Positions 26,399 to 42,412 of a stretch of 64,000 nt of DNA are shown in pieces (positions within the stretch are counted from its first letter, which is position 1; the number at the start of each line of letters is the position of its first letter). Source of the DNA: Candidatus Uhrbacteria bacterium (GTDB lineage Bacteria > Patescibacteriota > Patescibacteriia > UBA9934 > GWF2-40-263); contig JAPLZK010000004.1 of the NCBI GenBank assembly GCA_026395055.1, positions 18,805 through 82,804 of the forward strand. Direction: 5' to 3'. Made by a program: the position numbers and the translations under genes. Under the pieces are notes generated by a model that saw only the letters and a list, made by a program, of their open reading frames with translations, was not told the DNA's origin and made no database searches.

Positions 26399-29121
26399 AA
26401 GGATGGTTCAAACAAAGCGCTGAGAAAGGCATCTTCTGAATTAGGGAACTCTGCGTGTGAAAGATCCTGAGAGCTCCAAACAGTTTTCATCGAATTTGGC
26501 GTGTGAACATGAACGGTTGTGGAACGATTGTTTGCTCCGGATTGCTTTTGTAAGAGAATGGAATAATTTTCTGTTGGGGAAAGACCCAACCAGGATTTAA
26601 TCTCTTCCGTTGTTTTGTTTTTGGCAACGAGCGTGTTGAGAGTGAAGGGGAGCGTGTAGGTAAATGTTGTCACTGTTTCTGTTCCTGGTTTTGTTTGTGT
26701 CCAGTTTCCAAAAACTGTTTTTCCATTTTCTTCATACATTTGCGTGCCACTGTCTTTGTCGATGGTGAAACTTGCATCTGCAAATTGGAGATCCGGGTCT
26801 ACAATCCACGTTGGATCTGGTGTTTCAAACAGGCTGCCTCGTGGAATCGTGAATCCTTCCGCATGTGTAAGGACACTTCCCTTGGGAACGTAGAGTCTTT
26901 GGTAATTGACGTTGTGCGCTCCGGTGAACGGATCAAGCGGATCACCATGATGTTTGCGTGTAATGGTAACGGTGTTTGTGATCTCACCGTTTGAGGCGAC
27001 ATCAACGTTTACATCCACATGTTCGTCTATGACCGCATCCGTTTTTCCTCCACCTAAGTTTGTGTTCACGATCATCAAGTAATCTTTGTCTGTTTGCTTG
27101 AGATCTCCACCCCAACCACGTCCGAGAACCGTTTTTTCGACCGTTTCGTCTGTGAAGTAGAGTTGAATGTCTTTGTCTGCGAGCCCTTTGTTTAATTGAC
27201 CTGCAAGCGTAAGGAATGTGTCTGGAGATTCATGGAGCGCTTTTTCAATGAGCTTTGGAGCGAGCGCGCCAATAAAGGCTTTGGGTTTGTTTTCTGTTTT
27301 GTCGTATTCGTTTTCAACAATTTTCTGTGTTTCGGAAATAAAGTTTTGTTGATTGATCGTTCGATCAAACTCTGGCATTTCAACAGGACCAAGAAGACCG
27401 ATGAGGTCTTGAACGTAATTTGCGTTCACAGCAATCACACCATCTACATCGGATCCTCGTGAATTTTTATAGAACGAAATGATATGTCGCGCACTTGTGC
27501 GAAAATCGGGAAACCAGTTTGCGTCTTGGAACTCCCATTTGGCAGAAAGAAGTTGCAGTGGCCATGGGGCAACAAAGGATTGTTTTTGTTGTCCTTGAAG
27601 ATCGTATGTTCCCCCACCTGGGATATCGAGCTGTTCCATGACGCCGTTATGAACCGTCATCTCGGCAAAGCTTCCCATGAATCCTCCGGTTGGACGAAGT
27701 TCTGTGTTGTTTTGGAAAATGAGCAAGTAATGTTTTGTTTCGTTCGCGCCGAGGATGGTCGAGAGCGCATCGGACAATGAGAGAAAATCTTTTGTGGATG
27801 ATACAAGTGCGGGAAGCGTTGTTGTAAGTTGTGTGTACGTTTCTTTGTGATCGTCATTGATGGCAGTCAGGTCAACGTCTTTCATGGCGTCTTCCGCGGC
27901 AACCAAATGGGGAAGGGCGGAGCTGAGATATAAGTGAAGAATTTCAAGACGAGAGGATGGTGTTGGATTGACTTCTTGTTGCATGGCAGAGAATCCGTCT
28001 GTGATGCGAGAACCGGCAATGGAAAGTTCAGATCCAATTTTGAGAAGAGCGGTATTTGTTTTGACGGATTTTTGTGTTGGTGCAAGTGCAGCAAGGAGAA
28101 GGGAAACTCCGGATCCAAGGGAATCAATGTTTTCTTTTGCTTTTCCGAATTCCACACTCGCTGCGGCAAAATGCGCACCCGCTTCTGTTGGATTGGAAAC
28201 CAAGTTTGCTCCCGCAGCATCTTTCAAACTTTGTAAGGCTTGTGCGCCGTTTGCTTGTGCGTCTGTTTTTGCATCTCGCAAACGGTTCAGAACTTGCATG
28301 GCGTGGAGCGGAAGAACAAAGACGAACGAGAGAAGAACAAACACTCCAATGGTTTGTTGCCATCCGGAAGGCAGGATCAAAAAGTCGAAGGATGGGATCC
28401 AAGAGCGTTTTGGTTTTTCTTCCGGCTCGTCGCTTGTGAGATCTGGAACGTCTTCAACATCAAACAGTGATTCCAAATCTACATACTCGACTTCTTGACC
28501 ACTCGACTCCTCGACTACTTCTTCTTCCGGTAAATCGAAATACGATAAAATATTTTCTGGGAGCATTTTTGGTTCAAAGGAATCGATGGAAACGGATTCT
28601 TGTTTTTGAATACGCAGCGGCATGAGTTCTGGATTCATGCGTGTACGAAACATTATACGCGGATGAAACAACATTCCTTCGAATGTGGTTTTTGGTGCGG
28701 GGGTGTGTGCACTCATTTGGCCCTGAAGATCCGCGAGAGATAACTCGAGATCGTGCGTGGTGTCTGTGAGCGGTTCTTCGTCACGTTCCATTTCTGCTAA
28801 TGCATCTGCAAGGAAATTCAAGTGAATATCCATGTTTGGTTCGTCACGCAAAAGAGATTCTGGTGAGGGAACATGCGGACGAAGTTCTAAGATGAATGGA
28901 GAGAGTGTGGAGGATTCTTGTAGTTGAACGGATGGATTTTCTGCAGAGATGGTTGAGGATGTACGGAAATTTTCTGGGATTGCTTCATCAAAACGTAAGC
29001 CGTCATCAAGCAATGATTGGCGACGCACGGCATTTCTGAGTGCACGCTCAAAAGACACGCGAGAAAGATTTTTTCGCGGTTCTGGTTGTTTTTGGAATTG
29101 GTTAAGAACTTTTTTTGCCAC
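26395..29121 (-). CDS. Very large (908 aa) single-pass membrane protein with extracellular domain (possibly DUF4012-like)
   Basis: TM helix at about residue 250; conserved-looking block FQNNTELRPTGGFMGSFAE. Confidence 0.35.
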   Translation of the reverse strand: MAKKVLNQFQKQPEPRKNLSRVSFERALRNAVRRQSLLDDGLRFDEAIPENFRTSSTISAENPSVQLQESSTLSPFILELRPHVPSPESLLRDEPNMDIHLNFLADALAEMERDEEPLTDTTHDLELSLADLQGQMSAHTPAPKTTFEGMLFHPRIMFRTRMNPELMPLRIQKQESVSIDSFEPKMLPENILSYFDLPEEEVVEESSGQEVEYVDLESLFDVEDVPDLTSDEPEEKPKRSWIPSFDFLILPSGWQQTIGVFVLLSFVFVLPLHAMQVLNRLRDAKTDAQANGAQALQSLKDAAGANLVSNPTEAGAHFAAASVEFGKAKENIDSLGSGVSLLLAALAPTQKSVKTNTALLKIGSELSIAGSRITDGFSAMQQEVNPTPSSRLEILHLYLSSALPHLVAAEDAMKDVDLTAINDDHKETYTQLTTTLPALVSSTKDFLSLSDALSTILGANETKHYLLIFQNNTELRPTGGFMGSFAEMTVHNGVMEQLDIPGGGTYDLQGQQKQSFVAPWPLQLLSAKWEFQDANWFPDFRTSARHIISFYKNSRGSDVDGVIAVNANYVQDLIGLLGPVEMPEFDRTINQQNFISETQKIVENEYDKTENKPKAFIGALAPKLIEKALHESPDTFLTLAGQLNKGLADKDIQLYFTDETVEKTVLGRGWGGDLKQTDKDYLMIVNTNLGGGKTDAVIDEHVDVNVDVASNGEITNTVTITRKHHGDPLDPFTGAHNVNYQRLYVPKGSVLTHAEGFTIPRGSLFETPDPTWIVDPDLQFADASFTIDKDSGTQMYEENGKTVFGNWTQTKPGTETVTTFTYTLPFTLNTLVAKNKTTEEIKSWLGLSPTENYSILLQKQSGANNRSTTVHVHTPNSMKTVWSSQDLSHAEFPNSEDAFLSALFEPSL

Positions 29122-30220
29122 ACGTTTCGTAAATGGTTTGAATCGCTTGTGCCATCTTTTTCCATGAGTAGCGTTTTATTTGTTGGGTTCCTTTTTCAAT
29201 CAGGTTCGCGCGTTTTTGGGAAGAATCAACAAGTGTTGATAAAACGGTCGCCATGTTCTGTGAATCGTTTGGGTTGAAAAATGCGGCGGCGTCCCCAAGG
29301 ATTTCTTTGAGAGATGGAATGTCTGATGCCGCGACCGGAACTCCGACAGACATGGCTTCTAATGGCGGAAGTCCAAAACCTTCAACGCGTGATGGATACA
29401 CATACAGCAAGGCGTTTTGGTAAAGCTCTGCAAGGTGTTTATCTGTTGGGTGGTTGATGAATTCAACGTTTGTTGTTTTGTGTTCAAGAATGCGCTTATA
29501 AAAAACATTTTCTTTTCCTGCCAAAATCAGCGTGAGATCTGGATGTGTTTGTCGAAGAATTGTGAATGCCTCAAGGAGTCTCTCGAGATTCTTATGAGGA
29601 AACGCATTTCCAACGTAGAGCAAATATGGTCTCGAGCCCCCCTCCTTTACAAGGAGGGGTTGGGGGTGGTCGAGCGCAGTCACACCCTCATACACCACTT
29701 CAATCTTTTTTGGGTCAACACCTTCAATATGATGAAGAATGGAATTTGCGGTTGCGTGAGAGACACTGATAACTTTTTTTGCGGCGGTGATGGCGTGAGA
29801 AAGAACAAGTTTGTATCCCCAGTATTTTAGCGTAAAAATCGTTTGATGTCTTGTGGAAATCTTTGAGGAAAATGGTTCGTCGAGCAAAATTAGATCATGG
29901 ATGGTGACGACAAATGGTGTTCGAAGAAAAAGCGGAACGTTGAAGTGAGGGAAGTGGACGAGGTCGAGATGCTCGCGATCAACGATTCCTCCCATTTTCA
30001 GTTGTTCTTCGAGGCCGTACCAGTGAACATCTGCAAGTCGTTTCTCGAAGTTTGGATTCGTAATGACACACGTATCAAAATTCTCTTTTTTTAAAAACAA
30101 AACATAACGGTTCTTGGTGTCGACCATCTGGAGTTCATTCACCAGCTGTTCAACATATCTCCCAAGACCGCCCCCACCCACCATCGGGCCATACATACGT
30201 GCATCGATGCCGATATTCAT
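29102..30220 (-). CDS. Glycosyltransferase family 4 (GT-B) with in-frame palindrome B insertion
   Basis: EGFGLPPLEAMSVGVPV motif; start MNIGIDARMYG. The palindrome translates as PLLVKEGG within the linker before the LYVGNAFPHKN block. Confidence 0.7.
   Translation of the reverse strand: MNIGIDARMYGPMVGGGGLGRYVEQLVNELQMVDTKNRYVLFLKKENFDTCVITNPNFEKRLADVHWYGLEEQLKMGGIVDREHLDLVHFPHFNVPLFLRTPFVVTIHDLILLDEPFSSKISTRHQTIFTLKYWGYKLVLSHAITAAKKVISVSHATANSILHHIEGVDPKKIEVVYEGVTALDHPQPLLVKEGGSRPYLLYVGNAFPHKNLERLLEAFTILRQTHPDLTLILAGKENVFYKRILEHKTTNVEFINHPTDKHLAELYQNALLYVYPSRVEGFGLPPLEAMSVGVPVAASDIPSLKEILGDAAAFFNPNDSQNMATVLSTLVDSSQKRANLIEKGTQQIKRYSWKKMAQAIQTIYETCGKKSS
29627..29649. repeat. Palindromic element B, copy 3 (inside the GT4 CDS, in frame)
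   Basis: CCCCCCTCCTT-tac-AAGGAGGGG. Confidence 0.85.
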
Positions 30221-30346
30221 GAGGGAATTATAGCAGAAAGTCCTGAAGTCGTGGAGTTGTGGAGTGTTGGACAGTGCATATTTTATTCCAATGAAAAACA
30301 CCCGCCGCAGCAAACACAGAATGTGTTGTTGGGACGGGTGTGAGGT

Positions 30347-30826
30347 TTACTTCTTGGCGATGACGGCCACCATTTCCGCGTATCTTTCGCAATCGATGTT
30401 GGTTTGCGAGATCAATCGATCACCATGTCCGTCCATCGTCCGGACCACACGTGCGCTGCACTGCGGTTCATTCTCGGTAGGCGTTTTGCACACAAAGAGC
30501 TCTATGTGTGTGGTTGCATTGCTCCAGGTGGAAACGCACAGAGTCGCGTCTGCACCGGGCGTGAGACGTTTGACGCTTGCCCTTGCGGTCTGGGTGATCG
30601 CGTCGGAGGGATCCACGGCCGGCTTGTTGCAGAGAGCCAATTTCGTCTCCGCATTGTCGGCGCGTGCTTTTTCGAACTTCAGATCCTCAACCAATTTTTC
30701 GTTGGTCTGTTGCAGCAGGTCGATGTGCGCTTGGTCGAGCCTCGCTTGTTTGATCGCTTCGGCGTTGTTGCAGCCGAATACGGACATGAGCAAGAGAATA
30801 CCGATCATCTTGATAAGAGCACGCAT
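30347..30826 (-). CDS. Putative lipoprotein (159 aa)
   Basis: Signal peptide with an LMSVFGC lipobox. Confidence 0.5.
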   Translation of the reverse strand: MRALIKMIGILLLMSVFGCNNAEAIKQARLDQAHIDLLQQTNEKLVEDLKFEKARADNAETKLALCNKPAVDPSDAITQTARASVKRLTPGADATLCVSTWSNATTHIELFVCKTPTENEPQCSARVVRTMDGHGDRLISQTNIDCERYAEMVAVIAKK

Positions 30827-30884
30827 GTTTGCCTCCTCAGTGTGCACGAGATGCCTCTCGAGCAGGGTTGAAATGAACATGTCG

Positions 30885-31568
30885 TTACACTGCCGGTTCG
30901 TCCTTCTTCGGTTCGAACTCGACCGCGTAGTAGCAGACTTCGACGCGATAGCCTTCGCCCTTGCGCACGTCGATGCGCATCAGGCCGGCCCATGCGTGTT
31001 CGAGTTCCTTGAGTTTTATCTCGAGGTCATCGAAGTTTTTGAAGCCGTACGGTTCGAGGTTGTTCTCGTAGAACTTGTCACTGTTACAACCACCACCTTT
31101 GGTGTTGCGTGCCATATCCTCGAGGTACCTCGGCAAGGTCCAGAAGCCGTCGAGCTCGCCCTTGTACCAACCGTTTTCGTTGGCGAACTTGCGACAGGAT
31201 TCCGGAATCCGGAACGCGAGTTCTTTCGCGAGATCCGTCCAGACCTTCATTGCTTCGGCCTCGAGTGCGGCCTTGCGTTCGATTGAACTCTTGAGCGACG
31301 CGACGATCTGGATCTTGAGCCGATTGAATCCGTGGAATCGATCGCACGCGCCTTCAACCGAATCGATTGTCCTCGTGTCGGGCTTGAACGTCCAGCGCAA
31401 GCCGTCTTTCAACAGGACGTGCATATACCCTGCTTCGTCTGGTGCATCGAATGTGACGCACCCGATCGTTTGCGTATAATCGTTGTATAGGCCATGTGGT
31501 CCGATCAATGAAAACACGATTGTCTTTCCTGCGAACCGATCGCGCAATGCTTCGACAGTGAGCTGCAT
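30885..31568 (-). CDS. Hypothetical protein (227 aa)
   Basis: AGGAAACC before the ATG; no motifs. Confidence 0.45.
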   Translation of the reverse strand: MQLTVEALRDRFAGKTIVFSLIGPHGLYNDYTQTIGCVTFDAPDEAGYMHVLLKDGLRWTFKPDTRTIDSVEGACDRFHGFNRLKIQIVASLKSSIERKAALEAEAMKVWTDLAKELAFRIPESCRKFANENGWYKGELDGFWTLPRYLEDMARNTKGGGCNSDKFYENNLEPYGFKNFDDLEIKLKELEHAWAGLMRIDVRKGEGYRVEVCYYAVEFEPKKDEPAV

Positions 31569-31629
31569 GGTTTCCTCCTAAGTGGACGAGGTGCCCCTCG
31601 ACGATTCGTTGTTGTCGAATCGATTTTAG

Positions 31630-31740
31630 CATCTCAGCTCCCACTCACGACCGTTTCGCGAAGGGGAGAAAGACCACGTCATTCACGAATGACGTGGGAG
31701 CGCTCGATAACATTCTCCGAAATGTTATCGAGCGAGAACT
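31630..31740. repeat. Island-2 element D, copy 1 (ATCTCAGCTCCCACTCACGACCGTTTCGCGAAGGGGAGAAAGA + two hairpins)
   Basis: Shares a roughly 40-nt core with 32170-32252 and 33040-33112. Confidence 0.65.
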
Positions 31741-32118
31741 TTACGAAGGTACCTCTGCAAGCGACCGCGTGGAAAGGAAAAGTAGCTTTGTAATGTCTTC
31801 AATGACGAGTTGAAACATGACGATGCAGAACAAGTCCTTTGCCGCCTCATTATCTCTCTTGATTGTATCGCCGGACGCTCCTAGGTTGGTGCAATGGAGA
31901 CTGCGGCAGAAGCCGTAATCCGACCTGTCGAGCGTGTATTCGTAAAGCCGTTTCCCATCACTGACAAGAATGCTGAAGCCTTCATACGGTTTTTCCGCGT
32001 GCTTGATTGCAATCGTGTCGCAACCATGTTCGTTCGGCCAACCGATGTCGTTCTCAAACAATCCACCGTCGAGGTTCTTGAACTTTTCGAGAATTTTCAG
32101 CAATTGTTCGCGTGACAT
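31741..32118 (-). CDS. Hypothetical protein (125 aa)
   Basis: AAAAGG SD upstream of ATG 32118; element D2 lies 50 nt upstream. Confidence 0.45.
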   Translation of the reverse strand: MSREQLLKILEKFKNLDGGLFENDIGWPNEHGCDTIAIKHAEKPYEGFSILVSDGKRLYEYTLDRSDYGFCRSLHCTNLGASGDTIKRDNEAAKDLFCIVMFQLVIEDITKLLFLSTRSLAEVPS

Positions 32119-32169
32119 TCTTTTGCCTTTTGTATGCGCGTTGTGTCGACGCATAGTGTATCGAACGAT

Positions 32170-32252
32170 TGATCTCAGCTTCCATTCGCGACCGTTTCGC
32201 GAAGGGGAGAAAGAGCTCGACGTGATCGCGAGGGGCGATCTGATCGAGTAAG
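32170..32252. repeat. Island-2 element D, copy 2
   Basis: GATCTCAGCTTCCATTCGCGACCGTTTCGCGAAGGGGAGAAAGAGCTCGACGTGATCGCGAGGGGCGATC. Confidence 0.65.
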
Positions 32253-32410
32253 AATGTGAATGAACGTTCTCTCTAGCACAAATCGAGCGAGGTCGCGACC
32301 GGCGCAGTTGCGCGCGGGCCGTCGCCTTCTTCTTTGGTGGATTTGCGGGAGAGCTTTGCATGGAGCAGTTCCAGAAACAATCGCAGCATGAGACTCCTTG
32401 TGCCGGCGAC

Positions 32411-32791
32411 TTAATGCGCGGGCTGGCTGTAGAAATCCGTGATGAACATCTTGCCATTCAAACGACCGCGGCCGAGCCAGACTCGGAGAATGTTCCCGTT
32501 TTTATGGCGGTACGTTCCTTCCGTCACGCCGATCCAATCCTGTTCACCGTTTACTTCGAGGAGCAAATGCCACTCGGCTGGGACGGTTTTGTAGCGCCAC
32601 ATTTTCGTTGCGGCAAACCAGGTGTAATCGAATTCTTGGTGTGCGGGCTTGAAGTCGTGATTGACGACGACTGCATCCGCGACTTCGAGTTCGACACTGA
32701 CCGTGTTGATCAGATGGTAGATACCAGCGACAACGACAGCCAAGACCAGAAGGCCGAGGAGTCCGAGAAGACCGATGACGAACCAATCCAT
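32411..32791 (-). CDS. Membrane-anchored hypothetical protein (126 aa)
   Basis: N-terminal TM helix (FVIGLLGLLGLLVLAVVVAGIY). Confidence 0.45.
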   Translation of the reverse strand: MDWFVIGLLGLLGLLVLAVVVAGIYHLINTVSVELEVADAVVVNHDFKPAHQEFDYTWFAATKMWRYKTVPAEWHLLLEVNGEQDWIGVTEGTYRHKNGNILRVWLGRGRLNGKMFITDFYSQPAH

Positions 32792-32843
32792 TTTTTCCTC
32801 TCTGTGCCGACCCGAGCTTTGGGTGTGCAAGAATTTATGGTGC

Positions 32844-32981
32844 TTAGCGGACCGTCCGCGGCACGTTATTCATTGGAACACTCACCACATGCGGCGGATG
32901 CCAGATGCGGTAGATTCGCGCGCACGTTTTGGGGACGAGCAGAGTGAAGAGAAGCAGAAAAAGTTTCTGTCGGTAGGACAT
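32844..32981 (-). CDS. Small hydrophobic peptide (45 aa)
   Basis: Strong AAGGAG SD 5 nt upstream of ATG 32981; it is below the ORF-track cutoff; element D3 lies upstream. Confidence 0.35.
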   Translation of the reverse strand: MSYRQKLFLLLFTLLVPKTCARIYRIWHPPHVVSVPMNNVPRTVR

Positions 32982-33039
32982 GAGACTCCTTTTTCGAGTT
33001 GTCTCTCAATGTCGATCAAAATGTTCGACGTTTTTTCGA

Positions 33040-33112
33040 ACTTCCATCCACGATACACATCGCGAAGGGGAGAAAGAGCTCGACGCGATCGCGAGAGGCG
33101 ACGTTGTCGAGC
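33040..33112. repeat. Island-2 element D, copy 3
   Basis: ...CGCGAAGGGGAGAAAGAGCTCGACGCGATCGCGAGAGGCGAC..., nearly identical to copy 2 over about 50 nt. Confidence 0.65.
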
Positions 33113-33133
33113 AAGATGGAAATGTGCGTTGTC

Positions 33134-33499
33134 TTAGTACTCCTCGTCATGGATGTAGATCATGACGAGCGCGCCGTTCTTTGACACGAGACCGCCGAGT
33201 GCTTCCACGAGCATCCGCGCTTCCTGGCCGGGCACATCGTCCGGTTCCGCAAGGTGCCACCGTATGTGGAAGTCATTGACGCCGAGGACGAGGGCCAGAT
33301 AGTGAGCGAGTTCTTTCTCGCTCTCGACTTGCGTGACGATGGCACGGACGCAGATTTGTCGCTCCGTTTGCGTCATGGTCTCGTAGGTCTTCCGCATGTT
33401 GAGGATGAGATGCTTGCCCATCAACTGAGTGAGCGTATCGCGGGACCGTGAACGATTCACAACTCGCTTGATGACTGGATTTTGCAGAACTGCAACCAT
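33134..33499 (-). CDS. Hypothetical protein (121 aa)
   Basis: AGGAG SD upstream of ATG 33499. Confidence 0.45.
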   Translation of the reverse strand: MVAVLQNPVIKRVVNRSRSRDTLTQLMGKHLILNMRKTYETMTQTERQICVRAIVTQVESEKELAHYLALVLGVNDFHIRWHLAEPDDVPGQEARMLVEALGGLVSKNGALVMIYIHDEEY

Positions 33500-33551
33500 G
33501 AATTCTCCTGTTGTCGACGAATTGAATCGTGGGCGTTGTTGCTGGTTGAAC

Positions 33552-33896
33552 TTACTCCGCGAGCAGATAATCCACGACGCGGCGGTAGGTGCGGGCGGCC
33601 TTGGCCTGATCCGTGACAAGTGTCCGTGTGCCAACTTGGCCACGATAGCCTTCGATGTTCGAATAGCGCACGCACTTGATCTCGCCCGCCTCTTCGAGGA
33701 CGCGCAGCGAGGCGTATGGTTGCTCCTTGTCTACGACGTAGATGGCGAAACCGTCTGATGTGAGGTCGAGCAGGAGCGGTGCTTCGGTCCGTTTCAGGAA
33801 CGCGAAGAGCGCTCTCCAGAACCGTTGCGCCGCTGGATCTTGATCGATCGCGTTGAAGTCAATCAAAACTTGTTGCACGTTCACGTGAATTTCCAT
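33552..33896 (-). CDS. Hypothetical protein (114 aa)
   Basis: The GCGAGATCGCGTCGGC dyad lies immediately upstream of the ATG. Confidence 0.45.
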   Translation of the reverse strand: MEIHVNVQQVLIDFNAIDQDPAAQRFWRALFAFLKRTEAPLLLDLTSDGFAIYVVDKEQPYASLRVLEEAGEIKCVRYSNIEGYRGQVGTRTLVTDQAKAARTYRRVVDYLLAE

Positions 33897-33929
33897 GCCG
33901 ACGCGATCTCGCGTAAGCGTTGTTCTCGA

Positions 33930-34226
33930 TCAATGCACCAAGCTCTGCGAACGTCGCAAAGCGGAACCCCATTCCTTCATTGCTTGGGTCCGGATCCAGA
34001 CCTCGAGGGTTTCACGCGAGCGCGAAGCCTTGAGGAGGTGTCCACCCCAAAAAATCGTATCACCCTCGATTGGGACCTCGAGGGTGTGTGTCTCCCAACC
34101 GACTTCGATGTCGATTGCGATCACGAGACCGCGTTGGTTGATCAGCCACTCTCCGTCCTTGGGTGCACCGGCGTGGATTTCCACGATGCGGCTGTTTGGC
34201 GGCATCACAATGGCGAGGTGTGCCAT
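33930..34226 (-). CDS. Hypothetical protein (98 aa)
   Basis: CGCGAAATCGCGTCGGC dyad followed by AAGGAG SD. Confidence 0.45.
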   Translation of the reverse strand: MAHLAIVMPPNSRIVEIHAGAPKDGEWLINQRGLVIAIDIEVGWETHTLEVPIEGDTIFWGGHLLKASRSRETLEVWIRTQAMKEWGSALRRSQSLVH

Positions 34227-34396
34227 TTAATATTCTCCTTGCCGACGCGATTTCGCGCGGGCGTGTCATGGTTATTTCTTAACTTGAGTCTTCGATCAAG
34301 AGAGATAATCGAATGCTCGAGAAAAGCCATGTCGTTACAGGAACGACATGGAAGGCTCGATGCTCGTCATGAGTGACAAGGTGTCGAGTGGGAATG

Positions 34397-34621
34397 CTAG
34401 GCGCAGAGCAGGCGCGCCAGGTTGGCGTCGAACTGGTGGGGTTGTTCGTCGTCACGAACGTCGAGTCGCGACACCCGTTCGCGCAGTTCGGTTGCGATCA
34501 TCGCGTCCTCGCCGTCGATGAGGTGTGGGCGATGCCGGAACTCGAACTCGCGGCGCGTGATGACGCGATCGCTCGGACGGTAGACGCGACGCGAACGATT
34601 GGGACTGGAATTGGAACGCAT
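34397..34621 (-). CDS. Hypothetical protein (74 aa)
   Basis: AGGAG SD upstream of the ATG. Confidence 0.4.
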   Translation of the reverse strand: MRSNSSPNRSRRVYRPSDRVITRREFEFRHRPHLIDGEDAMIATELRERVSRLDVRDDEQPHQFDANLARLLCA

Positions 34622-34712
34622 GAGTCTCCTGTGCTCCGATTTTTATTCGGCGCAAGTCTTGAATCTTCTCCTCAGACCGACCATCACCATGCGACATTCG
34701 CAAATGCTGGGC

Positions 34713-34813
34713 GGTATCGAGTCCGCGAGCAGTGAAGCTGCTCGCGGCAAGTCGAAATGATTTCAAAGAGCGAAACTCGTTCAGCGCGAAGCTGATTGAG
34801 AGGGTGAGCGGGT
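34713..34813. repeat. Island-2 element C, copy a (~105-nt conserved element with covarying hairpin, loop TGAAGC)
   Basis: CCGCGAGCAG-TGAAGC-TGCTCGCGG hairpin, then TTTCAAAGAGC...GCGCGAAGCT..GAGAGG. Confidence 0.7.
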
Positions 34814-34824
34814 TGTGCGGAAGC

Positions 34825-35034
34825 CTACGCGCGCCACTTGGTGCGGCGGAAGTTCTTCCAGGTGCGGCTGTTGCGCGGACGATTGATGTCATCGTACGCA
34901 CTCGGGACAGTGCTCGTGGTGCGGCGATTCTTGAGCTTGAAGCTCACAAAGTCGCCGTCGAACGCATCCACTTCGAGCGCGTGACGCGCACGAATCTCCT
35001 GGGTCGTATTCATGCCGCGATGAGGATCATACAT
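34825..35034 (-). CDS. Hypothetical protein (69 aa), weak start context
   Basis: ORF only; weak SD. Confidence 0.3.
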   Translation of the reverse strand: MYDPHRGMNTTQEIRARHALEVDAFDGDFVSFKLKNRRTTSTVPSAYDDINRPRNSRTWKNFRRTKWRA

Positions 35035-35100
35035 GTTGAGTACCTGAGAAGGCGTGATTGCCTATCTCATGACGGGCCTCCTTTGTGCGGTGTTGATTGC

Positions 35101-35358
35101 CTAGTTGTGTTCGCGTTCCCAGCGACGGTTTTTGCTTTCCGGCTCTGCGATCGCACGTTCGATCACCTTGTCGATGTGCGGCAGGAATCCTTCGGGCTGC
35201 GTCGTGGGCCAGCTCTTCTCGATCGCTTCTTGGTAGAGGTAATCGCGAATCTGTTCACGCGTCATCGGCTCGGTGATGTAACCGTCCGAGACCGTAGTCC
35301 ACATGCGGAAATGCAACGAACCATCTTTCTTCGTACGCGCATGCACAACGTGTGCCAT
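35101..35358 (-). CDS. Hypothetical protein (85 aa)
   Basis: GTGCGAAATCGCATCGGC dyad followed by AAAGGAAA upstream of the ATG. Confidence 0.45.
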   Translation of the reverse strand: MAHVVHARTKKDGSLHFRMWTTVSDGYITEPMTREQIRDYLYQEAIEKSWPTTQPEGFLPHIDKVIERAIAEPESKNRRWEREHN

Positions 35359-35405
35359 GTTTTCCTTTATGTGCCGATGCGATTTCGCACGGGCGGGTTG
35401 GTTGA

Positions 35406-35630
35406 TTACTTCTTGTACTGCTTGTTTCCGACCATGAGTCCGATCATGCCGAGGGCGGCGTAGGTCGGCAGCATCATGTAGTAGCCAGTCTTCTGTATGA
35501 ACACGAGCGACGTGATCTCCTCGCCCTTCGCGGTTTTTTCGATGAGATCGACGGCGTCCTTGTTCAACGTGTAGCCGCAAAGCTGCGACAGGAGGAAGCA
35601 CAACAGACCAAGCAAAATATTCGTAAGCAC
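35406..35630 (-). CDS. Small 2-TM membrane protein (74 aa, GTG start)
   Basis: GGAG 8 nt upstream of the GTG; CGCGAGATCGCGTCGAC dyad upstream. Confidence 0.35.
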   Translation of the reverse strand: MLTNILLGLLCFLLSQLCGYTLNKDAVDLIEKTAKGEEITSLVFIQKTGYYMMLPTYAALGMIGLMVGNKQYKK

Positions 35631-35704
35631 TGGCAGACTCCACTGTCGACGCGATCTCGCGTAGACGTTCTCACTCTGCTTCGCGCACCACGTATCCGCC
35701 AATC

Positions 35705-35812
35705 GGAAGTGATGTTCGAAGTCGAGTCCCTGTTTGTGAAGCAAACAGGGCAAGACGGTTTTCAAAGAGCAACACTCTCATTTGCGCGAAGCTATGTGAG
35801 AGGGGAGTCGAA
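35705..35812. repeat. Island-2 element C, copy b
   Basis: GAAGTGATGTTCGAAGTCGAGTC-CCTGTTTG-TGAAGC-AAACAGGG...TTTTCAAAGAGC...CTCTCATTTGCGCGAAGCTATGTGAGAGG. Confidence 0.75.
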
Positions 35813-35816
35813 GGTG

Positions 35817-36762
35817 CTAGGCGGCCTCCTGCATGTTGAAGTGTTCGTTGTTGAGTTCGAATTCTTCCATCATGCGAGCTTCCGCTTGCGCCCTCATCTT
35901 GTCGACGTACGTGTTCCATGCCGCCACTTCGCGCTCTCGCTTGGTGAACGCTGCAGACATTTCGTCGCCGATCGTCCACGCGCAGTGGAACTTCGGCTTG
36001 TGACGCGCCCACTGCTTGGTCGCGTTGTCGGGGAAGTTCTTCTGTTCGAAGTCCCAGATGTGGATCCAACGATCGTCACCCGGGATTTTGTTCTTCTTTT
36101 CTTCGGCCATGATGTTGTAAACGCGGTCGGAATGACACCCTAGCCCGCGACGGCGCTTGTTCTTCCAGGACAATCCGTTGCGCTGCCGATTACGCTGGTT
36201 CTTTTTCGAACCATTCAGCTTTTGATACCGCGCTTCCGTTGTCGCGAGCTTCTCCTCGCCTTCGAGGTTCGACTCGATGTACACGTGGCCGCGCGGGTCG
36301 CACTTGGGCTTGTCGCGCTGCTCGTCTTTGACCTGCTCTTCGGCCGCTGCGCGATCCATCCACCAGAACCGCATGTGCAGTTCCGTGATTTTGCGCTGCA
36401 GGTTCATGCGGGCATTCCACTCCCGGTTCTCGCGCAGCGTGTACATCATCGCGTGATGGGTGATCTGCACGTGATCGAGATCGAGATCGTTGTCGTCATC
36501 CTCGACCAAGTCGCTTTCGTCGCGCTTGGCCCAGTGGACTTCGATGCCGTTCCCGCGACCGGGTTTTTTCGGCGTGATGTCCTTCGTCATGTTCGCCACC
36601 CAGCGCTTGTCCATTTCCGCGAGACGTTCCTCGTCGAGGATGAACCGTGGCGCGCGTGCCATCGACATCTGACGCGGCTCGCCCTTGTACGGGTCGAACC
36701 ACTTCGTGCCGATGATGCCACGACGACCGCTCGAGGACTTTCCGAAACTCAGCATGAGAATC
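35817..36762 (-). CDS. Hypothetical charged protein (315 aa)
   Basis: AAGGA SD before ATG 36762. It has highly charged blocks (DDDNDLDLD; KNQRNRQRN) and no family assignment. Confidence 0.45.
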
Positions 36763-36883
36763 CTTATGGCCGACCCAATATTGGGCGGGCGATCTTTCCA
36801 CCGTAGTTTTTTACGAAGGTGGATGTTGTTGTTTACACATTCAGGAACCAGACTCAGTCCGCCCACCACCGCACGAGAGACGT

Positions 36884-36987
36884 GAAGTGATGTTCGAAGT
36901 CGAGTCTCCCAGTTGTGAAGCAACTGGGAGCAGGACGAAGATTTCAAAGGAGCTAGGCTCTCATTCGCGCGAAGCTAAGTGAGAGGA
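36884..36987. repeat. Island-2 element C, copy c
   Basis: GAAGTGATGTTCGAAGTCGAGTC-TCCCAGTTG-TGAAGC-AACTGGGA...TTTCAAAGGAGC...CTCTCATTCGCGCGAAGCTAAGTGAGAGG. Confidence 0.75.
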
Positions 36988-37009
36988 AAATGTGTTGATG
37001 ATGGCTCGA

Positions 37010-37555
37010 TTACTTCTGGGCGGTGTCCTTCGGAAGCACCAGCTTGAAGTCGATGACCTTGCCGTCGGCGCTGCGCACGAACTCGTACTTCGCGAGATCG
37101 GGGCCGTAGTAGGGGGCGTCTTTCTTCTTGAACCAGATCGCTCCATCAGACACGCTGAGATGGTGTGTCTGGAACCAGCTGTTGCGGTAGGTGCACTTTT
37201 CGTACGCCGTGTCCTTGTACTTCTTCTCGCACTCGTCGTTTCCGGCCTTGACGGTGACGAGTGCGTCGAAGGTGTTCATGAGCGCGATGTGCTCCAGATC
37301 GGACGCGGTCTTGGTCGCTTCGAGCTGCTTGCTCAATTCCGCGACCTTGTCCGTCGCCGTCTTCAACTCGGTCGTCGTTTCGGTCAGTTTTTCTTTGGCC
37401 ACTTTGCCGGCGTCGAGCTGATCGGCCACTTCCAGTGCGTGGGCGTTGTAGCCTTGCTCCACGATCACGTTGCCGATGGCCCTGATACCGAAGCCGGCAC
37501 CAACCACCAGAACAATTGCACCCAAGAACGTCAGAACGGGATAGAAACCCTTCAT
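37010..37555 (-). CDS. Membrane-anchored coiled-coil protein (181 aa)
   Basis: N-terminal TM helix followed by a heptad-rich segment; AAGGAT SD. Confidence 0.45.
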   Translation of the reverse strand: MKGFYPVLTFLGAIVLVVGAGFGIRAIGNVIVEQGYNAHALEVADQLDAGKVAKEKLTETTTELKTATDKVAELSKQLEATKTASDLEHIALMNTFDALVTVKAGNDECEKKYKDTAYEKCTYRNSWFQTHHLSVSDGAIWFKKKDAPYYGPDLAKYEFVRSADGKVIDFKLVLPKDTAQK

Positions 37556-37630
37556 GTGCTTATCCTTTTTTGATTTGGCGCGTCCATTGCGCCGCAAGAC
37601 ACTCTCACCGAACACTACTCTTTGACTGCC

Positions 37631-37738
37631 GCAGAGTTATGTTCAGAGTCGAGTCCCGCAGCTGTGAAGCAGTTGCGGGCAGACCTGGTTTTCAAAGAGC
37701 GATTCTCTCATTCGCGCGAGGCTACGTGAGAAAGGGGG
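37631..37738. repeat. Island-2 element C, copy d
   Basis: TTATGTTCAGAGTCGAGTC-CCGCAGCTG-TGAAGC-AGTTGCGGG...TTTTCAAAGAGC...CTCTCATTCGCGCGAGGCTACGTGAGAAAGG. Confidence 0.75.
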
Positions 37739-37939
37739 TCATTTGTTGTGTGTGTCGCGGTGTGCGTCGCGTTTCAAGATGCCGTCGCGGATCTTCATGC
37801 GATCCTTGTCGACGCGCTTCTCATGGAAACGCTGATCATTGTTCATACCGGCCGCGATGCGAGCCTTGCGAACCGCCGCGATCGTGTCTTTCACGACCTG
37901 GGGGGTATTCCTTTTCTTCTTGTTTTTGTGCTTTGCCAC
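37739..37939 (-). CDS. Small highly basic protein (66 aa), possible nucleic-acid binding
   Basis: Lys/Arg-rich (MAKHKNKKKRNTPQ...). Confidence 0.4.
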   Translation of the reverse strand: MAKHKNKKKRNTPQVVKDTIAAVRKARIAAGMNNDQRFHEKRVDKDRMKIRDGILKRDAHRDTHNK

Positions 37940-38000
37940 GATCTTTTGCCTTTTTGCTCCGCGTACATAGCGCCGAGCGAACGTATTTCGATGAATAACA

Positions 38001-38054
38001 GAAAAACCGATACTTGTTTATTTCAACGAGAGAAATACTCAAATATCGGTTTTC
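38001..38054. repeat. Nested inverted repeat at the island-2 right boundary (possible bidirectional terminator)
   Basis: AAAACCGATA ... TATCGGTTTT 10-bp arms with internal ATTTC/GAAAT arms, flanked by A and T runs. Confidence 0.5.
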
Positions 38055-38274
38055 AAAAATAGGGCCCTCGACACGTTCGGGCAATATGATTGATTTTTTT
38101 ACTATCGATCTATCCTTTTCAGGATATATGGGACTGGATAGTGCAGCTCTCTCCCCATGGTTGTAAAAGAGGTAAGACGGAACAGACGTTTTTTTGACGA
38201 CTATTCAATCTAAGCATGGACATACTATATCACTTTTTGGCGCTTTTGTCAAGACCTGAGTGCAAAAAAATCGC

Positions 38275-39441
38275 TCATTTGAGCGATTTTTCAAAAATAG
38301 CGAGGGTTTGTTCCGCGGCTTTTTTCCAGGAAAACTCGGTTGCTCGCTCAAGTCCAGCCTTTTTGAGCTGTTCATGCAGGGGTTTGAGCGAAATGATGCC
38401 TTTTAAGGCGTCCGCGATGTCTTGGATGTTAAACGGATCAACATGCAACGCGCCTGAGCTCGTAACTTCAGGCATGCTCGAGATATTGCTTGTGATAACC
38501 GGGAGTCCAGAAGCCATTGCCTCGAGAATGGGAAGGCCAAAGCCTTCGTAGAACGACGGCCAGATAAAGACGCTGGCGGAACGGTAGATTGCGGGGAGAT
38601 CAAGTGGGTTTATGTATTCGAGGTTATGCACCCAATCATGAACATCGCGCTTCCAAAGTCGTCGACGGATGTTGTGAGACTTCCAACCCCATTTTCCCAC
38701 AAGAACAAGATGTAAATCGTCGTGCGTCATTTCGCGATACCGTTTTACACCTTCAATGATCGACAAGACATTCTTGCGTGGTTCGATCGTTCCGACAAAA
38801 AGGGCGAAGCGTTTCGGAAGTTTGAGCTTCGATCTGACACCGTGATCATGCGCTTCCATTCTTGGATGGAAGGTTGATGTGATGCCGTGCGGAATGGCTG
38901 CAATCTCGTCTGGGGATTTGCGAAACATACGTGCGACGTCATGGCTTGTTGTGTTGGATGGCGTAATCACGAATCGCGCATCGCGGATGAGTTTGTGCGC
39001 ATCAAGTAGATGATGCCATACGCGCATTTTGCGAGAAAAAAAATCTGGAAAAAATTTCCAAGAAACATCGTGAATGGTAAGGACGGTTGGAATGGAGGTT
39101 GGAAGAACCGTGATGTTTAGGTTTGGAAGAAACACAAGATCAATTGGATCCTTCACGAGCCAGTTGATGGCTGGTTGTTTCATTAAAAGTAATTTGAGAT
39201 TCAAAAATTTATTCGCCATCGGAACATGTGTATGTTTCACGAATGCTGGGAAGACAAATGATGGGGAAGTGCGTGAGCGAAAGATTGAAAGGAGGTCAGG
39301 TGCTTCTCGGCCAGACGTCAGCAAAATATATTCGTGAGTATTTGCTAAAGCAAAAAGCGCGCCGAGGAGTTGAATGGTGTACTCTCCGACGCCGCTTTGT
39401 TCGTGTGTATTCAAATGTCTACAATCAACGAGGATGCGCAT
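38275..39441 (-). CDS. Glycosyltransferase family 4
   Basis: EGFGLPILEAMASGLPVITSN motif. Confidence 0.7.
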   Translation of the reverse strand: MRILVDCRHLNTHEQSGVGEYTIQLLGALFALANTHEYILLTSGREAPDLLSIFRSRTSPSFVFPAFVKHTHVPMANKFLNLKLLLMKQPAINWLVKDPIDLVFLPNLNITVLPTSIPTVLTIHDVSWKFFPDFFSRKMRVWHHLLDAHKLIRDARFVITPSNTTSHDVARMFRKSPDEIAAIPHGITSTFHPRMEAHDHGVRSKLKLPKRFALFVGTIEPRKNVLSIIEGVKRYREMTHDDLHLVLVGKWGWKSHNIRRRLWKRDVHDWVHNLEYINPLDLPAIYRSASVFIWPSFYEGFGLPILEAMASGLPVITSNISSMPEVTSSGALHVDPFNIQDIADALKGIISLKPLHEQLKKAGLERATEFSWKKAAEQTLAIFEKSLK

Positions 39442-40513
39442 AACGTTTTGCGATTTCCTTCATTTTTTCAACAAACTTTGCTTCATTAAACAGTTCTGCA
39501 TGCGCCTTAATTTTGTTGGCATCGTACTTTGACTGATCAAATCGGATCAAATGATCCGCGAGCTCTTCCCAAGATTGTTCATCAAAGAACTCTCCACTTA
39601 GACCTTCAACAACTGTCTCAACCGCGCCACCTTTGCGATACGCAATGACGGGAGTTCCGCTTGCCATTGCTTCAACCGGTGTAATCCCAAAGTCTTCTTC
39701 TTGTGGGTGAATAAACGCTTTTGCATTCGCATACAATTCGCGCTGTTCTTTTTCGGAAACACGTCCAAGGAATTCAATATTGGATTTTGCTTTTTTGCGT
39801 AGTTCTTTTTCAACAGGTCCGTTTCCAAAAATTTTGAGAGGAATTCCTGTTTTGTTGCACGCATCCACAACCATATCGAAACGTTTGTAGGCAACAAGCC
39901 GACCTCCTGTCAGGAAATAGGTTTTTGGTTTTGGAGAGATGTGAAAGTTGTGTGTGGCAACAGGTGGAAAAATAATTTCCGAATCACGTCGATAATATTT
40001 TTTGATTCTGTCTGCGACGGTTTTTGAGTTTGCCACAAAATGATCCACGCGATTCGCCGCTTGTTGATCCCATAAACGTAAGTGGGACAACACGGGTGGC
40101 AACAGTGCTTTCACAATATTTGGAACACGTAACTCTTTGATATAGCTTTGCGTATCCGTCCACAAATATCTCGTTGGTGTGTGGCAATAACAAATATGAA
40201 TCGCGTCTGGTCGTGTAATGATTCCTTTCGCAAACGCACTCGTCGAAGAGATGACGACATCGAACTCACGCAGATCGTAATGTTCCGTTGCGGTCGGCAT
40301 GAGGCTGATGTACCACTGATACTTTTTGGTGGCGAACGGAAAACGTTGTAGGAACGAAGTTCGAATGTCTTTTCCAATAAACCCCGGCATCTTCTTTTGG
40401 TCAAAAAATAAAACAAAGGTCGGAGCATCCGGCCATGTTTTTTGGAGAACCTCAAGAACTTTCTCGGCTCCACCGTCTTGAACCAAATAATCGTGAACCA
40501 GGGCAATTTTCAT
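39425..40513 (-). CDS. Glycosyltransferase family 4
   Basis: EDFGITPVEAMASGTPVIAYRKGG motif. Confidence 0.7.
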   Translation of the reverse strand: MKIALVHDYLVQDGGAEKVLEVLQKTWPDAPTFVLFFDQKKMPGFIGKDIRTSFLQRFPFATKKYQWYISLMPTATEHYDLREFDVVISSTSAFAKGIITRPDAIHICYCHTPTRYLWTDTQSYIKELRVPNIVKALLPPVLSHLRLWDQQAANRVDHFVANSKTVADRIKKYYRRDSEIIFPPVATHNFHISPKPKTYFLTGGRLVAYKRFDMVVDACNKTGIPLKIFGNGPVEKELRKKAKSNIEFLGRVSEKEQRELYANAKAFIHPQEEDFGITPVEAMASGTPVIAYRKGGAVETVVEGLSGEFFDEQSWEELADHLIRFDQSKYDANKIKAHAELFNEAKFVEKMKEIAKRYAHPR

Positions 40514-40548
40514 AACACCGGCACTTTACCTGATCCTTTTTTGCTTGA

Positions 40549-41961
40549 CTAGTATGCCCCTTTTCTGAAAATAACAACGATCGGTGTCTTTAGGAGAATA
40601 TACAAATCTAACCACGGGCTCCAGTGTTCAATGTAGTAGGTGTCGAGTCTGACTTCTTCATCGAAGTCGAGGTCTGCGCGGCCGGAGATTTGTGCGAGGC
40701 CGGTGATTCCAGGTTTGATGGTGAGAACTTTTTTGTGTTCCGGTTTGTATTTTGCGACTTCTTCTGGTAAGTGTGGGCGTGGTCCAACGAGACTCATTTT
40801 TCCTGTGAGGACAAGAAAGAATTCAGGAAGCTCATCAATGGAGAATTTGCGAATAAATGTGCCGACGCGTGTGACACGAGGATCATTTGCGATTTTGACC
40901 ATGGGTGTTCCTTTGCGCGTATCTTTTTCCGCGAGTTCGCGATAGCGCATGTTATGTGTGTGTGGAACCATGGATCTAAATTTGAAATAGGGAAATGGTT
41001 TTCCACCTTGGCCAATGCGTGTCATGCGCTTATTATCATCGGATCGAGAAAAGAGAATGGGGCCACGCGAATCGAGTTTGATGGCGATTGCGGTGATCAA
41101 CATGATCGGCGAGGTGAGAATGATGAGAATGAGGGATGCAACAATATCAAACAAACGTTTATAAATGGCTCCCCAGCCATCAAGCGGGGTCTTTTGAACT
41201 TCAATCACGGGAATTCCGGAGAACATGTGAATCACGGATCTGCCGACAGCGGTTGCGAAAAGATCGGCAGAATATCGAAAGCCTAAATGTTCGACGTCCG
41301 TGAATGCGATGAGGGCGAGCGTTGTGTTTTTACTTGCTTCTGGATCGGCGAGGAGAACTTCATCAATTTTATCTTGATCTTTGAGAGTGCGTAATTTTTT
41401 TGCGACCGCATCATCAAATGTTTTGAATGCGGCAACGATTTGTAATCCGAAGCGTGGTTTTTTCTCAAAGATTCCTTTAAGGGTATCGGCTGTGTCGTTT
41501 GATCCAATGATCGCAATACGAATCACACCAATGCCCATAGACATGAGGGAGCGTTGTAATCCTCGAATGACAAGACGTCCAAGAGAAACAAAGACCATCG
41601 AGAAGAACCAGGCAACAAGCGCGATGAATCGAGAATCAAAAAATGTGCGTGAGAAGAATAGAATGGAAAACACAAGTGCCATCGAAGTAGATGTTGCGAG
41701 CAGCACGCGTGAAAGTTCTTTTGCGATGGATCGTCGATGTGTGGAATACAGTCCAGCGGATGCGAACACGGCGATCCAAATAAATAGACTTGGTAAAAGA
41801 ATGGTGATGTATTGTTGGAGAGTGAGCGCAAAGATAACAGGACGAATGCTTGTGAAGTAGGGGAGGAAACGCGAATAGTACGCAGCAATGCCGGCGGCAA
41901 CGAGTGCGAGATAATCGAGAGGAACAAGGGCAAGTGTAAAGGCGAGTTCAGAGCGTTTCAT
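40549..41961 (-). CDS. Polyprenyl-phosphate hexose-1-phosphate transferase (WbaP/bacterial sugar transferase family)
   Basis: N-terminal multi-TM region; C-terminal [20 protein letters not shown]...[21 protein letters not shown] sugar-transferase domain. Confidence 0.75.
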
Positions 41962-42027: not shown

Positions 42028-42254
42028 CGAGGCGAGATTCTTTGGGTTCCAAAGGAGTGATCTGTAAGCCGAATTTTGTCTACCCTGTCTTTCAACAGAG
42101 GAGGCGATCATCTATCTTGTCTCATTGTCGCCAATGAGATCGTGCGAGCTACCAAATTTGCTCTTTCACCGAAAAGGGTTTGCCACACATGCATGTCACC
42201 ATGCAGCGAGATACGTAATCTTGCGATACCGTATCACTTTTCACCTTTCATTTT

Positions 42255-42412
42255 GCGAAGCAAAATGACCCTGAGCCTGTCGCCCTTCAAATTTTTCAGG
42301 GCGACCATGAGTCCGATCGAATGGTCGAAGGGTGCATGCGCATAGTATGGGCATAAGCTTGGACCCTTCGACTCACTGCGTTCGCTCAGGATAATTTTGC
42401 TTCGCAAAATTA
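42255..42412. repeat. ~160-bp nested inverted-repeat element (MITE-like or structured RNA)
   Basis: Outer arms TTTTGCGAAGCAAAAT..CCTGAGC and GCTCAGG..ATTTTGCTTCGCAAAA, with inner hairpins GTCGCCC/GGGCGAC and GTCGAAGGGT/ACCCTTCGAC. Confidence 0.55.

Follow-up and report, generated by a model that had tools for sequence, protein, structure and literature searches.

Among the described systems closest to the locus presented here, clusters of attC sites lacking integron-integrases (CALINs) have no IntI by definition, Cluster K mycobacteriophages carry start-associated sequences and extended start-associated sequences (SAS/ESAS), and in N-utilisation (nut) sites a hairpin stands shortly downstream of boxA. 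The hyperplastic regions of T4-type phages carry promoter early stem-loops (PeSLs), which are promoter-terminator motifs (PMC2839356; PMC4122927). The boxA sequence recruits NusB/NusE and makes RNA polymerase resist Rho; it is known outside ribosomal RNA (rrn) operons as well, for example upstream of CRISPR arrays, and protects long arrays from Rho (PMC7665894), while its gamma-proteobacterial consensus is GYTCTTTAANA (PMC5725501). Our subject is a stretch of 64,000 nt from a metagenome-assembled genome (MAG) of Candidatus Uhrbacteria (contig JAPLZK010000004.1, positions 18,805 to 82,804; hereafter the window), in which an island at 30347-37939 on the minus strand holds 16 small co-oriented genes (g1 to g16) encoding proteins of 38-312 aa. 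With a probability of roughly 0.5 we read this island as a lineage-specific flexible gene array, placed at a fixed hotspot between the GT4b and GT4a genes of an envelope-polysaccharide locus in one Uhrbacteria clade, which would be expressed by read-through from one promoter and whose intergenic modules would be nut/rrn-like antitermination sites doubling as recombination joints. The antitermination mechanism by itself is a reasoned hypothesis, built from sequence features, and by our estimate somewhat less likely than not.

The flanks of the island form one polysaccharide locus, as an earlier note on this DNA had proposed: a GT4 gene (GT4a, 29102-30220) and a DUF4012 gene (26395-29121) are located on one side, and two GT4 genes and WbaP (Bac_transf) at 38275-41961 on the other. 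The GC content of the island (52-57.5%) exceeds that of the flanks (42-47%), also as noted earlier, and GC at third codon positions (GC3) is 0.60-0.81 in the island genes vs 0.40-0.49 in the flanking GT4/WbaP genes. The earlier note had listed 17 minus-strand open reading frames (ORFs) of 45-315 aa; their orientation stands, whereas the count is 16 and the range 38-312 aa, and the charged protein given there as 315 aa is present as g3 with 312 aa. The genes can be considered real because of their Shine-Dalgarno (SD) sites of AGGAG type (found for each of the 16, with an extra two-codon upstream ORF), their GC3 periodicity and dN/dS values of 0.19-0.31; gene calls made independently on identical Logan contigs gave the same genes. 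Described from the translations before, the lipoprotein (g16), the proteins anchored by transmembrane (TM) segments (g2, g4, g12), the coiled-coil (g2) and the poly-basic 66-aa protein (g1) are all seen again. None belongs to a recognisable family: searches of the island proteins against Pfam, PHROGs and PADLOC (the last covering 10/16) gave nothing significant, PDB sequence profiles for g3 and g15 found no relative, and AlphaFold models showed no informative fold. No integrase, transposase or recombinase was found among the island proteins, the flanks and 30 other larger ORFs of the window, nor was any phage structural gene found among the window ORFs, in agreement with the first reading of the DNA.

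The placement of the array was examined by locating GT4a orthologs in their own contigs and comparing the loci (numbered with L) by GT4a identity to the window. At 54-55% identity (L127, L132, L133) the site is empty: WbaP, GT4c, GT4b, GT4a and DUF4012 are contiguous, the gap between GT4b and GT4a is 56-78 nt, and neither leader nor elements are present. At 64% (L125/L126, L131) an array of about 5-6 kb is found, and at 77-90% (L123/L124, L128, L003, L005, L102) the array measures 6.6-10.7 kb or longer. Thus the site is empty in the more distant relatives, and the arrays of the clade always begin with promoter, leader and terminator, behind which come 6-11 kb of small co-oriented genes with high GC3. 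In each genome checked (L003, L123/L124, L125, L128, L131) the GC content of the array exceeds that of its own flanks. Concerning their content, membership and order differ strongly among genomes. Specifically, the window and L128 (GT4a 80%) have only g3, g5 and g6 in common, with the order of g5 and g6 swapped, and only g3 and g6 are common with L123 (GT4a about 79-80%), while g11, g12, g14, g15 and g16 are common with L005. Four of the genes common with L005 have a dN/dS of 0.19-0.31 and a dS of 0.51-0.82, compared with 0.44 for the adjoining GT4a; because dS is near that of the flank and dN/dS is low, these genes are real and have been resident since those two lineages split. Array genes are, then, under purifying selection. 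The earlier proposal of an insertion within a contiguous locus holds in view of the three relatives with adjoining GT4b and GT4a, although a recent insertion does not, given these dS values; the site is an old, continuously remodelled hotspot and not a recent single insertion. Related genomes carrying the same genes at this position with backbone-like composition were not found; the relatives hold arrays of largely different genes at the same site. Conserved flanks, an empty site, variable content and deviant composition, by which a flexible genomic island at a conserved hotspot is recognised, are all present, and the locus fits such an island, with a conserved leader and new RNA modules in addition.

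Several observations concern the related loci themselves. In L132, one of the relatives with an empty site, positions ~1000-5500 hold a different, ORFan GC-rich block (58-65% vs about 48%) between a Trp/Tyr-tRNA synthetase gene and WbaP, and the neighbourhood may hold more than one hotspot. In L123, 4320-4887 and 7127-7700 are an internal paralogous duplication (78% identity over 582 nt) that takes in D elements, described below, and the gene between them, which is evidence of duplication within arrays. Recognisable cargo in related arrays comprises a HicB-like antitoxin (L003, 9258-9500) and a weak STIV_B116-like domain (L123, 6745-7113). L131 has a Methyltransf_21 gene (4070-4879) inserted between GT4b and the leader, and a RIFCSP genome (L124, 3381-3542; L084, about 1630-1790) has an opposite-strand 53-aa ORF between GT4b and the leader promoter, which the window does not have.

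The array head is the most constant part of the locus. The sole strong sigma-70 match in or next to the island is TTGACA-17-TATAGT with an extended TG (38252-38224, minus strand), which matches 11/12 positions, lies just past the GT4b terminator and is conserved in L123/L084, L102, L098 and L128. It is followed by a conserved leader RNA (38001-38217, minus strand), delimited by alignment and RNAalifold, which consists of a 5' hairpin, a variable middle and a terminator hairpin (38054-38001) with its U tract. The 5' hairpin, AUGGGGAGAGA[GCUG...CAGU]CCCAU at about 38158-38128, has an inner stem that covaries (GCUG/CAGU to CCAU/AUGG). The terminator has a covarying stem of 11-15 bp (four pairs with compensatory changes), a conserved loop GUAUUUCUCUC and a folding energy of -22.8 kcal/mol, and then UUUUU. 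This is the inverted repeat that had been taken for the end of the array; the repeat is real, but minus-strand transcription puts it at the start, as a conserved leader terminator. The leader module heads each array for which the start could be read (the window, L123/L084, L102, L098/L105, L128, L125 and L131) and occurs in none of the three empty sites, and the first gene behind it differs among genomes. The module at 38001-38252 (minus strand) is a candidate attenuator, riboswitch or stand-alone small RNA. A purine run of the leader, GGGGAGAGAG, is complementary to the conserved terminator loop UUUCUCUC; both are invariant, so that covariation is uninformative on their pairing. A leader peptide (MGRELxYPVP) was considered and rejected, as the substitutions compensate the RNA stem and not the peptide, and L125 has no ATG.

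Two families of structured elements recur between the genes, D with four copies and C with three, as described before. Their core motifs have three matches each, far above chance (0.02-0.13 expected), and none elsewhere in the 64 kb. With nhmmer profiles, copies of D and C were found in more than 10 independent contigs (metagenomic or MAG), and the families are therefore conserved outside the window; all copies that can be placed belong to Uhrbacteria arrays at the GT4b-GT4a locus and are always co-oriented with the genes. The D copies are located, on the minus strand, at 37633-37733, 36884-36986, 35706-35804 and 34711-34804. Each D is composed of a hairpin H1, an unpaired GCUCUUUGA(A/C)A, a second hairpin H2, the sequence GACUCGAC and one of two conserved tails. 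The first copy reads GCUCUUUGAAA at the boxA-like position; the second has the variant GCUCCUUUGAAA and the conserved tail ACGUCUCUCGUG..GGACUGAGUCUG reaching ~36845, and the fourth carries the alternative tail ACCGCCCAGCAUUUGCGAAUGUCGCA. H1 is a two-tier hairpin with the pentaloop UUCGC and covarying stems (CUCUCA/UGAGAG, AGUUC/GAACU, AACCA/UGGUU), and H2 has a stem of 9-10 bp, usually with the loop CUUCA, and compensatory changes in 10/10 pairs. Over 19 distinct copies of D, no columns other than GCT..TT (the boxA core) and CTC.A are invariant. For the 18 pairs tested, 88% of the cells are paired vs 31-50% with the partner slid, and 0/500 shuffles reach the observed values on 4/5 measures. 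The boxA-like motif, found only in sense orientation, varies less than any other segment of these copies, is not followed by a U tract and stands 9-15 nt from H2. Written as GCTCTTTGA(A/C)A it agrees with 10/11 positions of GYTCTTTAANA, a gamma-proteobacterial consensus that may not be that of the host. Its position 8 is G and not A, as in the rrn boxA of Firmicutes.

The C copies, likewise on the minus strand, are found at 33030-33116, 32170-32253 and 31626-31720. They contain Ha, a strong hairpin of variable sequence that is directly followed by UCUUUCUYCCC (UCUUUCUCCCC in the first copy) and is terminator-like, the Ha of the third copy (31697-31674) being flagged as such. In the long hairpin Hb, 17 pairs join the UCUUUCUYCCC tract with GGRUGGAAGYUGAGA; U-G pairs dominate, and G-C/G-U/A-U series are seen. 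Here 86.5% of the cells are paired vs 44-54% when slid. Further small hairpins (CGAGAGACAACUCG) stand ahead of SD. Concerning strand, GCTCTTT occurs six times on the sense strand of the island and never on the antisense strand (0.7 expected), and CTCGAC 13 and six times, respectively; the wobble pairs and this strand bias speak for D and C structures in sense-strand RNA. The intergenic modules are conserved from genome to genome, and their folding is that of the sense strand. All D copies are promoter-proximal to all C copies in the window, L003, L123 and L128. None of the Rfam 15 covariance models matched the leader, D or C at its gathering score, and permissive scans gave matches at chance level only (E > 0.5); the antisense strand of D gave a weak RT-9 match (E 2.5), which we attribute to chance. 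No sigma-70 match lies inside any C or D element, and the TTGA(A/C)A within the boxA-like motif was rejected as a -35 box as it has no -10 partner. MITE-like (miniature inverted-repeat transposable element) selfish repeats were rejected too, since the elements are array-confined, co-oriented with genes and modular, with neither terminal inverted repeats nor target duplications seen.

Exchange between arrays can be followed at their junctions. Compared with the window, L005 has a four-gene block of its own with C elements on its borders, the junction falling between Ha and Hb, and an unrelated gene takes the place of g13 there in the stretch from the g12 stop to the following C. Between g15 and g16, L005 has a further C element that is missing from the window; here we infer a deletion with its end-points in CTCGA repeats. 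In the comparisons with L128 and L123, the homology around g5 and g6 covers a leader of 19-55 nt and the ORF and ends within about 10 nt past the stop. The element after g6 is D in the window and C in both L123 and L128. Because homologous ORFs carry different downstream elements, the element does not form the cassette 3' end, as it would in an integron; these homology limits and the differing element indicate that the exchangeable unit is a short leader plus ORF, and that C and D are separate punctuation supplying homology. The breakpoints between the window and L005, L123 and L128 fall at C/D modules or directly past stop codons, as between PeSL-bearing phages. Strain-level variation between L123 and L124 was rejected, as their DNA is identical and only the gene calls differ.

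From these data the following course of events may be proposed. The array, without internal sigma-70 promoters, would be transcribed from the leader promoter, and read-through of the leader terminator would be conditional, attenuator- or riboswitch-like. The D modules would act as rrn- or phage-nut-like sites loading Nus factors, possibly together with an array-encoded basic protein such as g3, and the D-loaded RNA polymerase would resist both Rho and those hairpins of the distal C modules that look like terminators. For the C modules, and for the short hairpins before SD sites, we propose roles in partial termination, as signals for processing or stability, and as 5'-UTR structures. Modules that recur between unrelated genes would provide homology for recombination, be it with DNA that was taken up or inside one array, and gene-sized units would thereby be inserted, deleted, replaced and reshuffled, as with PeSLs in T4-type phages. 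A single long antiterminated transcript fits because internal promoter matches are absent, the start lies behind a terminator, terminator-like hairpins follow and D precedes C. The part of g3 as an antitermination partner is speculation; g3 is the sole family that recurs in all D-bearing arrays, with D on both sides in seven of them, and is a basic protein predicted as largely disordered or helical (AlphaFold2 pLDDT 52).

PeSLs are likewise short, conserved, composite regulatory stem-loop motifs located between small, mostly ORFan genes of a hypervariable region, and, serving as points of homologous exchange, they mark the borders of indels and replacements between relatives. The array presented here differs in that it occupies a single locus of a bacterial chromosome, that of a member of the candidate phyla radiation (CPR), and in that its modules have no promoter consensus, are longer (about 100-170 nt), fall into several families and include a boxA-like sequence. 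With rrn leaders, CRISPR-array leaders and the lambdoid nutL and nutR sites D has in common an unpaired, hairpin-flanked linear motif, a next hairpin 9-15 nt downstream, and a sense-strand position upstream of long, terminator-containing DNA of foreign composition. In contrast to these, the motif occurs 3-7 times per array and not once in a leader, the D pentaloops CUUCA and UUCGC are unlike the boxB loop GAAAA, and no N or Q homolog was found. Most H2 loops read CUUCA and several are unrelated, and the basic g1 and g3 have no homology to known proteins. No rRNA operon is present in the window or in the related loci compared.

A number of points weigh against this reading. The single-promoter operon relies on a lack of sigma-70 matches in a phylum with hardly any work on its promoters, and the reading of GCUCUUUGAAA as boxA has been drawn from sequence resemblance alone. 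In C, GCUCUUU shares sequence with the end of a hairpin, and one L125 variant has another sequence in its place, so that it is probably only a U/C tract there. The D copies with unrelated H2 loops weaken the idea of a loop-specific protein, and the order of D before C could come from descent from one ancestral array and not from function. Finally, recombination at the elements is drawn from a handful of pairwise breakpoints, with no strain-level polymorphism offered by the identical L123 and L124.

CPR bacteria (Patescibacteria) have small genomes, regarded as streamlined, in which half of the genes have no known function, and little is known about regulation and exchange of genes in them. The locus shows that a groundwater clade of Uhrbacteria, which are ultra-small CPR bacteria, keeps a dedicated, conserved slot in an envelope-biosynthesis cluster, in which small membrane, secreted and basic proteins are rapidly exchanged. 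With the leader, D and C it also adds at least three conserved structured RNA motifs that are new. If D is a functional boxA/nut site, we know of no earlier case of antitermination signals repeated along an accessory array of protein-coding genes, and transcription control in an uncultivated phylum would become more accessible. Our literature searches found no description of such an array system.

The alternative that survives best is ordinary operon punctuation: the modules of a variable operon would act in partial termination, as hairpins for RNase processing or stability, and as 5'-UTR structures in translation, and the likeness to boxA would be coincidental. It is possible, though we hold it rather doubtful. 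Ha with its U/C tract does score as terminator-like, the long Hb is a plausible substrate for a double-strand RNase, small hairpins stand directly before SD sites, an RNase J is encoded nearby and the GCUCUUU of C overlaps a hairpin end. What punctuation leaves unaccounted for is the D motif, which is unpaired and the most invariant part of 19 diverse copies while both adjoining stems vary freely, which agrees with 10/11 positions of a known protein-binding consensus (PMC5725501), which, like nut sites, has a hairpin after it, here 9-15 nt further on, and which has no U tract behind it. A bolder and unlikely proposal is an integrase-independent gene-cassette system of CPR bacteria not described before, in which the riboswitch- or attenuator-like leader would gate transcription of exchangeable small genes, and repeated nut-like modules (boxA and pentaloop hairpins), possibly read by g3, would license the polymerase to pass through foreign cassettes rich in terminators and act as joints for swaps between cells.

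An integron-like array of CALIN type is improbable. Under it, C and D would be recombination sites folding as single-stranded DNA, served by a recombinase encoded elsewhere or by one not recognised, such as g3. The resemblance to integron cassettes, to which the earlier note had also pointed, is one of architecture: a head promoter, co-oriented and apparently promoterless small ORFan genes behind it, conserved structured repeats at gene junctions where the indel breakpoints lie, fast turnover and reshuffled order of genes among genomes, and toxin-antitoxin-like cargo (HicB) in a relative; g3, a conserved core gene, is moreover flanked by D. Membership in the class does not follow from it. A regular-expression search of both strands of 30330-38060 gave no RYYYAAC/GTTRRRY cores 40-130 nt apart (shuffled mean 0.86), and no tyrosine or serine recombinase, IntI included, was found in the window or called in the related loci; the g3 prediction has neither a recombinase motif nor a PDB relative. 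The elements are not tied to ORF 3' ends, since the same ORF is followed by different elements in different genomes, and some genes have no element at all, none separating g4/g5, g8/g9 or g15/g16. The abundant U-G pairs and the siting beside SD fit RNA, the genes in common diverge in step with the flank, and the array starts behind a structured leader and terminator within a polysaccharide locus. We therefore reject integron or CALIN membership, and the locus shows clearly that an integron-like architecture can arise without the machinery of integrons. Least probable is a decayed prophage or the early region of an integrated mobile element, in which small host-takeover or anti-defence genes would be served by phage-type nut sites and terminators; membership is rejected here too, for in spite of the foreign composition, the small ORFan genes, the boxA followed by a hairpin as in lambdoid nut sites, the small basic proteins g1 and g3 and the weak STIV_B116-like and HicB matches in related arrays, no integrase, replication or structural gene occurs here or in any related array, PHROG matches are absent but for a marginal one, exact element motifs gave single chance-level matches only in IMG/VR and no relatives of g15 were found in viral contigs, no att repeats flank the island, and its start is a promoter of host composition with a leader conserved across lineages.

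Returning to the array as we read it, its genes can be followed from the leader onwards, all of them on the minus strand. The first, g1 (37739-37939), encodes a Lys/Arg-rich protein of 66 aa from a GTG start, has a GC3 of 0.73 and matches no family; after the first D copy comes g2 (37010-37555; 181 aa), with an N-terminal TM anchor and a coiled-coil. The highly charged g3 (35817-36755; 312 aa, with basic patches) lies between the second and third D copies. It is followed by g4 (35406-35630; 74 aa, two TM segments, GTG start inferred), g5 (35101-35358; 85 aa), whose L128 homolog (76% aa) occupies another array position, and g6 (34825-35034; 69 aa), which has homologs in L123, L128 and L130. The two-codon upstream ORF, ATGAGATAG (ATG-AGA-TAG, 35062-35070), has its own strong AGGAGG SD ~27 nt upstream of g6, which itself has no good SD, and it is kept upstream of the g6 homolog in L128 (about 5018-5026). 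A motif, TAGGCAATCA, recurs after the g5 stop and after the stop of this upstream ORF. Past the fourth D copy, g7 (34397-34621; 74 aa) is followed by a terminator-like hairpin (34327-34351) and then CUUUUCU, and by g8 (33930-34226; 98 aa), which has the short hairpin GCGAAAUCGCG and a GUCGGCA-SD in front of it, g9 (33552-33896; 114 aa), preceded by GCGAGAUCGCGUCGGC, and g10 (33134-33499; 121 aa). Beyond the first C copy lie g11 (32844-32981; 45 aa, with a signal-like N-terminus), g12 (32411-32791; 126 aa, TM-anchored; dN/dS 0.19 with its L005 ortholog) and g13 (32273-32389; 38 aa), in place of which L005 has a different gene of 74 aa. The second C copy precedes g14 (31741-32118; 125 aa; dN/dS 0.22 with its L005 ortholog), and between the third and g15 stand the leader hairpins CGAUUCG..CGAAUCG and CGAGGGGCACCUCG. 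The 227-aa protein of g15 (30885-31568) is identical to NTX72_04880, and its C-terminal domain of ~135 aa is a small family that recurs in the arrays of L003, L005 and L125 (two copies in the last). Finally, g16 (30347-30826) encodes the lipoprotein of 159 aa with an LSVFGC lipobox (dN/dS 0.25 with its L005 ortholog), and a canonical intrinsic terminator (30293-30341, -21.9 kcal/mol, with UUUUU) closes the array, with the TATAAT box for GT4a after it.

Apart from the C and D modules, a motif (G)UCGGCA(C)A stands just before the SD in ~8/16 genes, often behind a small inverted repeat. SAS/ESAS are comparable, being short conserved motifs, often with a small inverted repeat, that directly precede the SD or start codon in some of the genes; the sequence found here is different, belongs to a bacterial chromosome and coexists with the larger C/D modules. 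C/A-rich, G-poor tracts (e.g., UCAACCAACCCGCCC, CAACACCGCACAA, CAACCAGCAACAACGCCCAC) follow the stops of g2, g4, g5, g6, g9, g10, g15 and g16, and their composition is like that of Rho-utilisation sequences.

Elsewhere in the window, a second GC-rich stretch (Island 1) is located at ~8000-14000 and contains minus-strand ORFs without Pfam matches (9309-10550, 11361-11942, 11807-12592 and 12735-13763). Its repeated hairpins CCUCUCAC...GAGAG (e.g., at 11934-11968 and 12723-12757) are like the H1 of family D, without the boxA-like motif. The RNase P RNA (bacterial type A) at 42048-42602 (minus strand) measures 555 nt compared with a model of 367 positions, and so has large insertions; the homologs likewise exceed the model, with 550 nt in L102, 414 nt in L100 and 434 nt in L127. 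The tRNA-Ile gene at 60104-60180 (minus strand) has the anticodon UAU according to ARAGORN, and all three tRNA genes of the window measure 77-86 nt.

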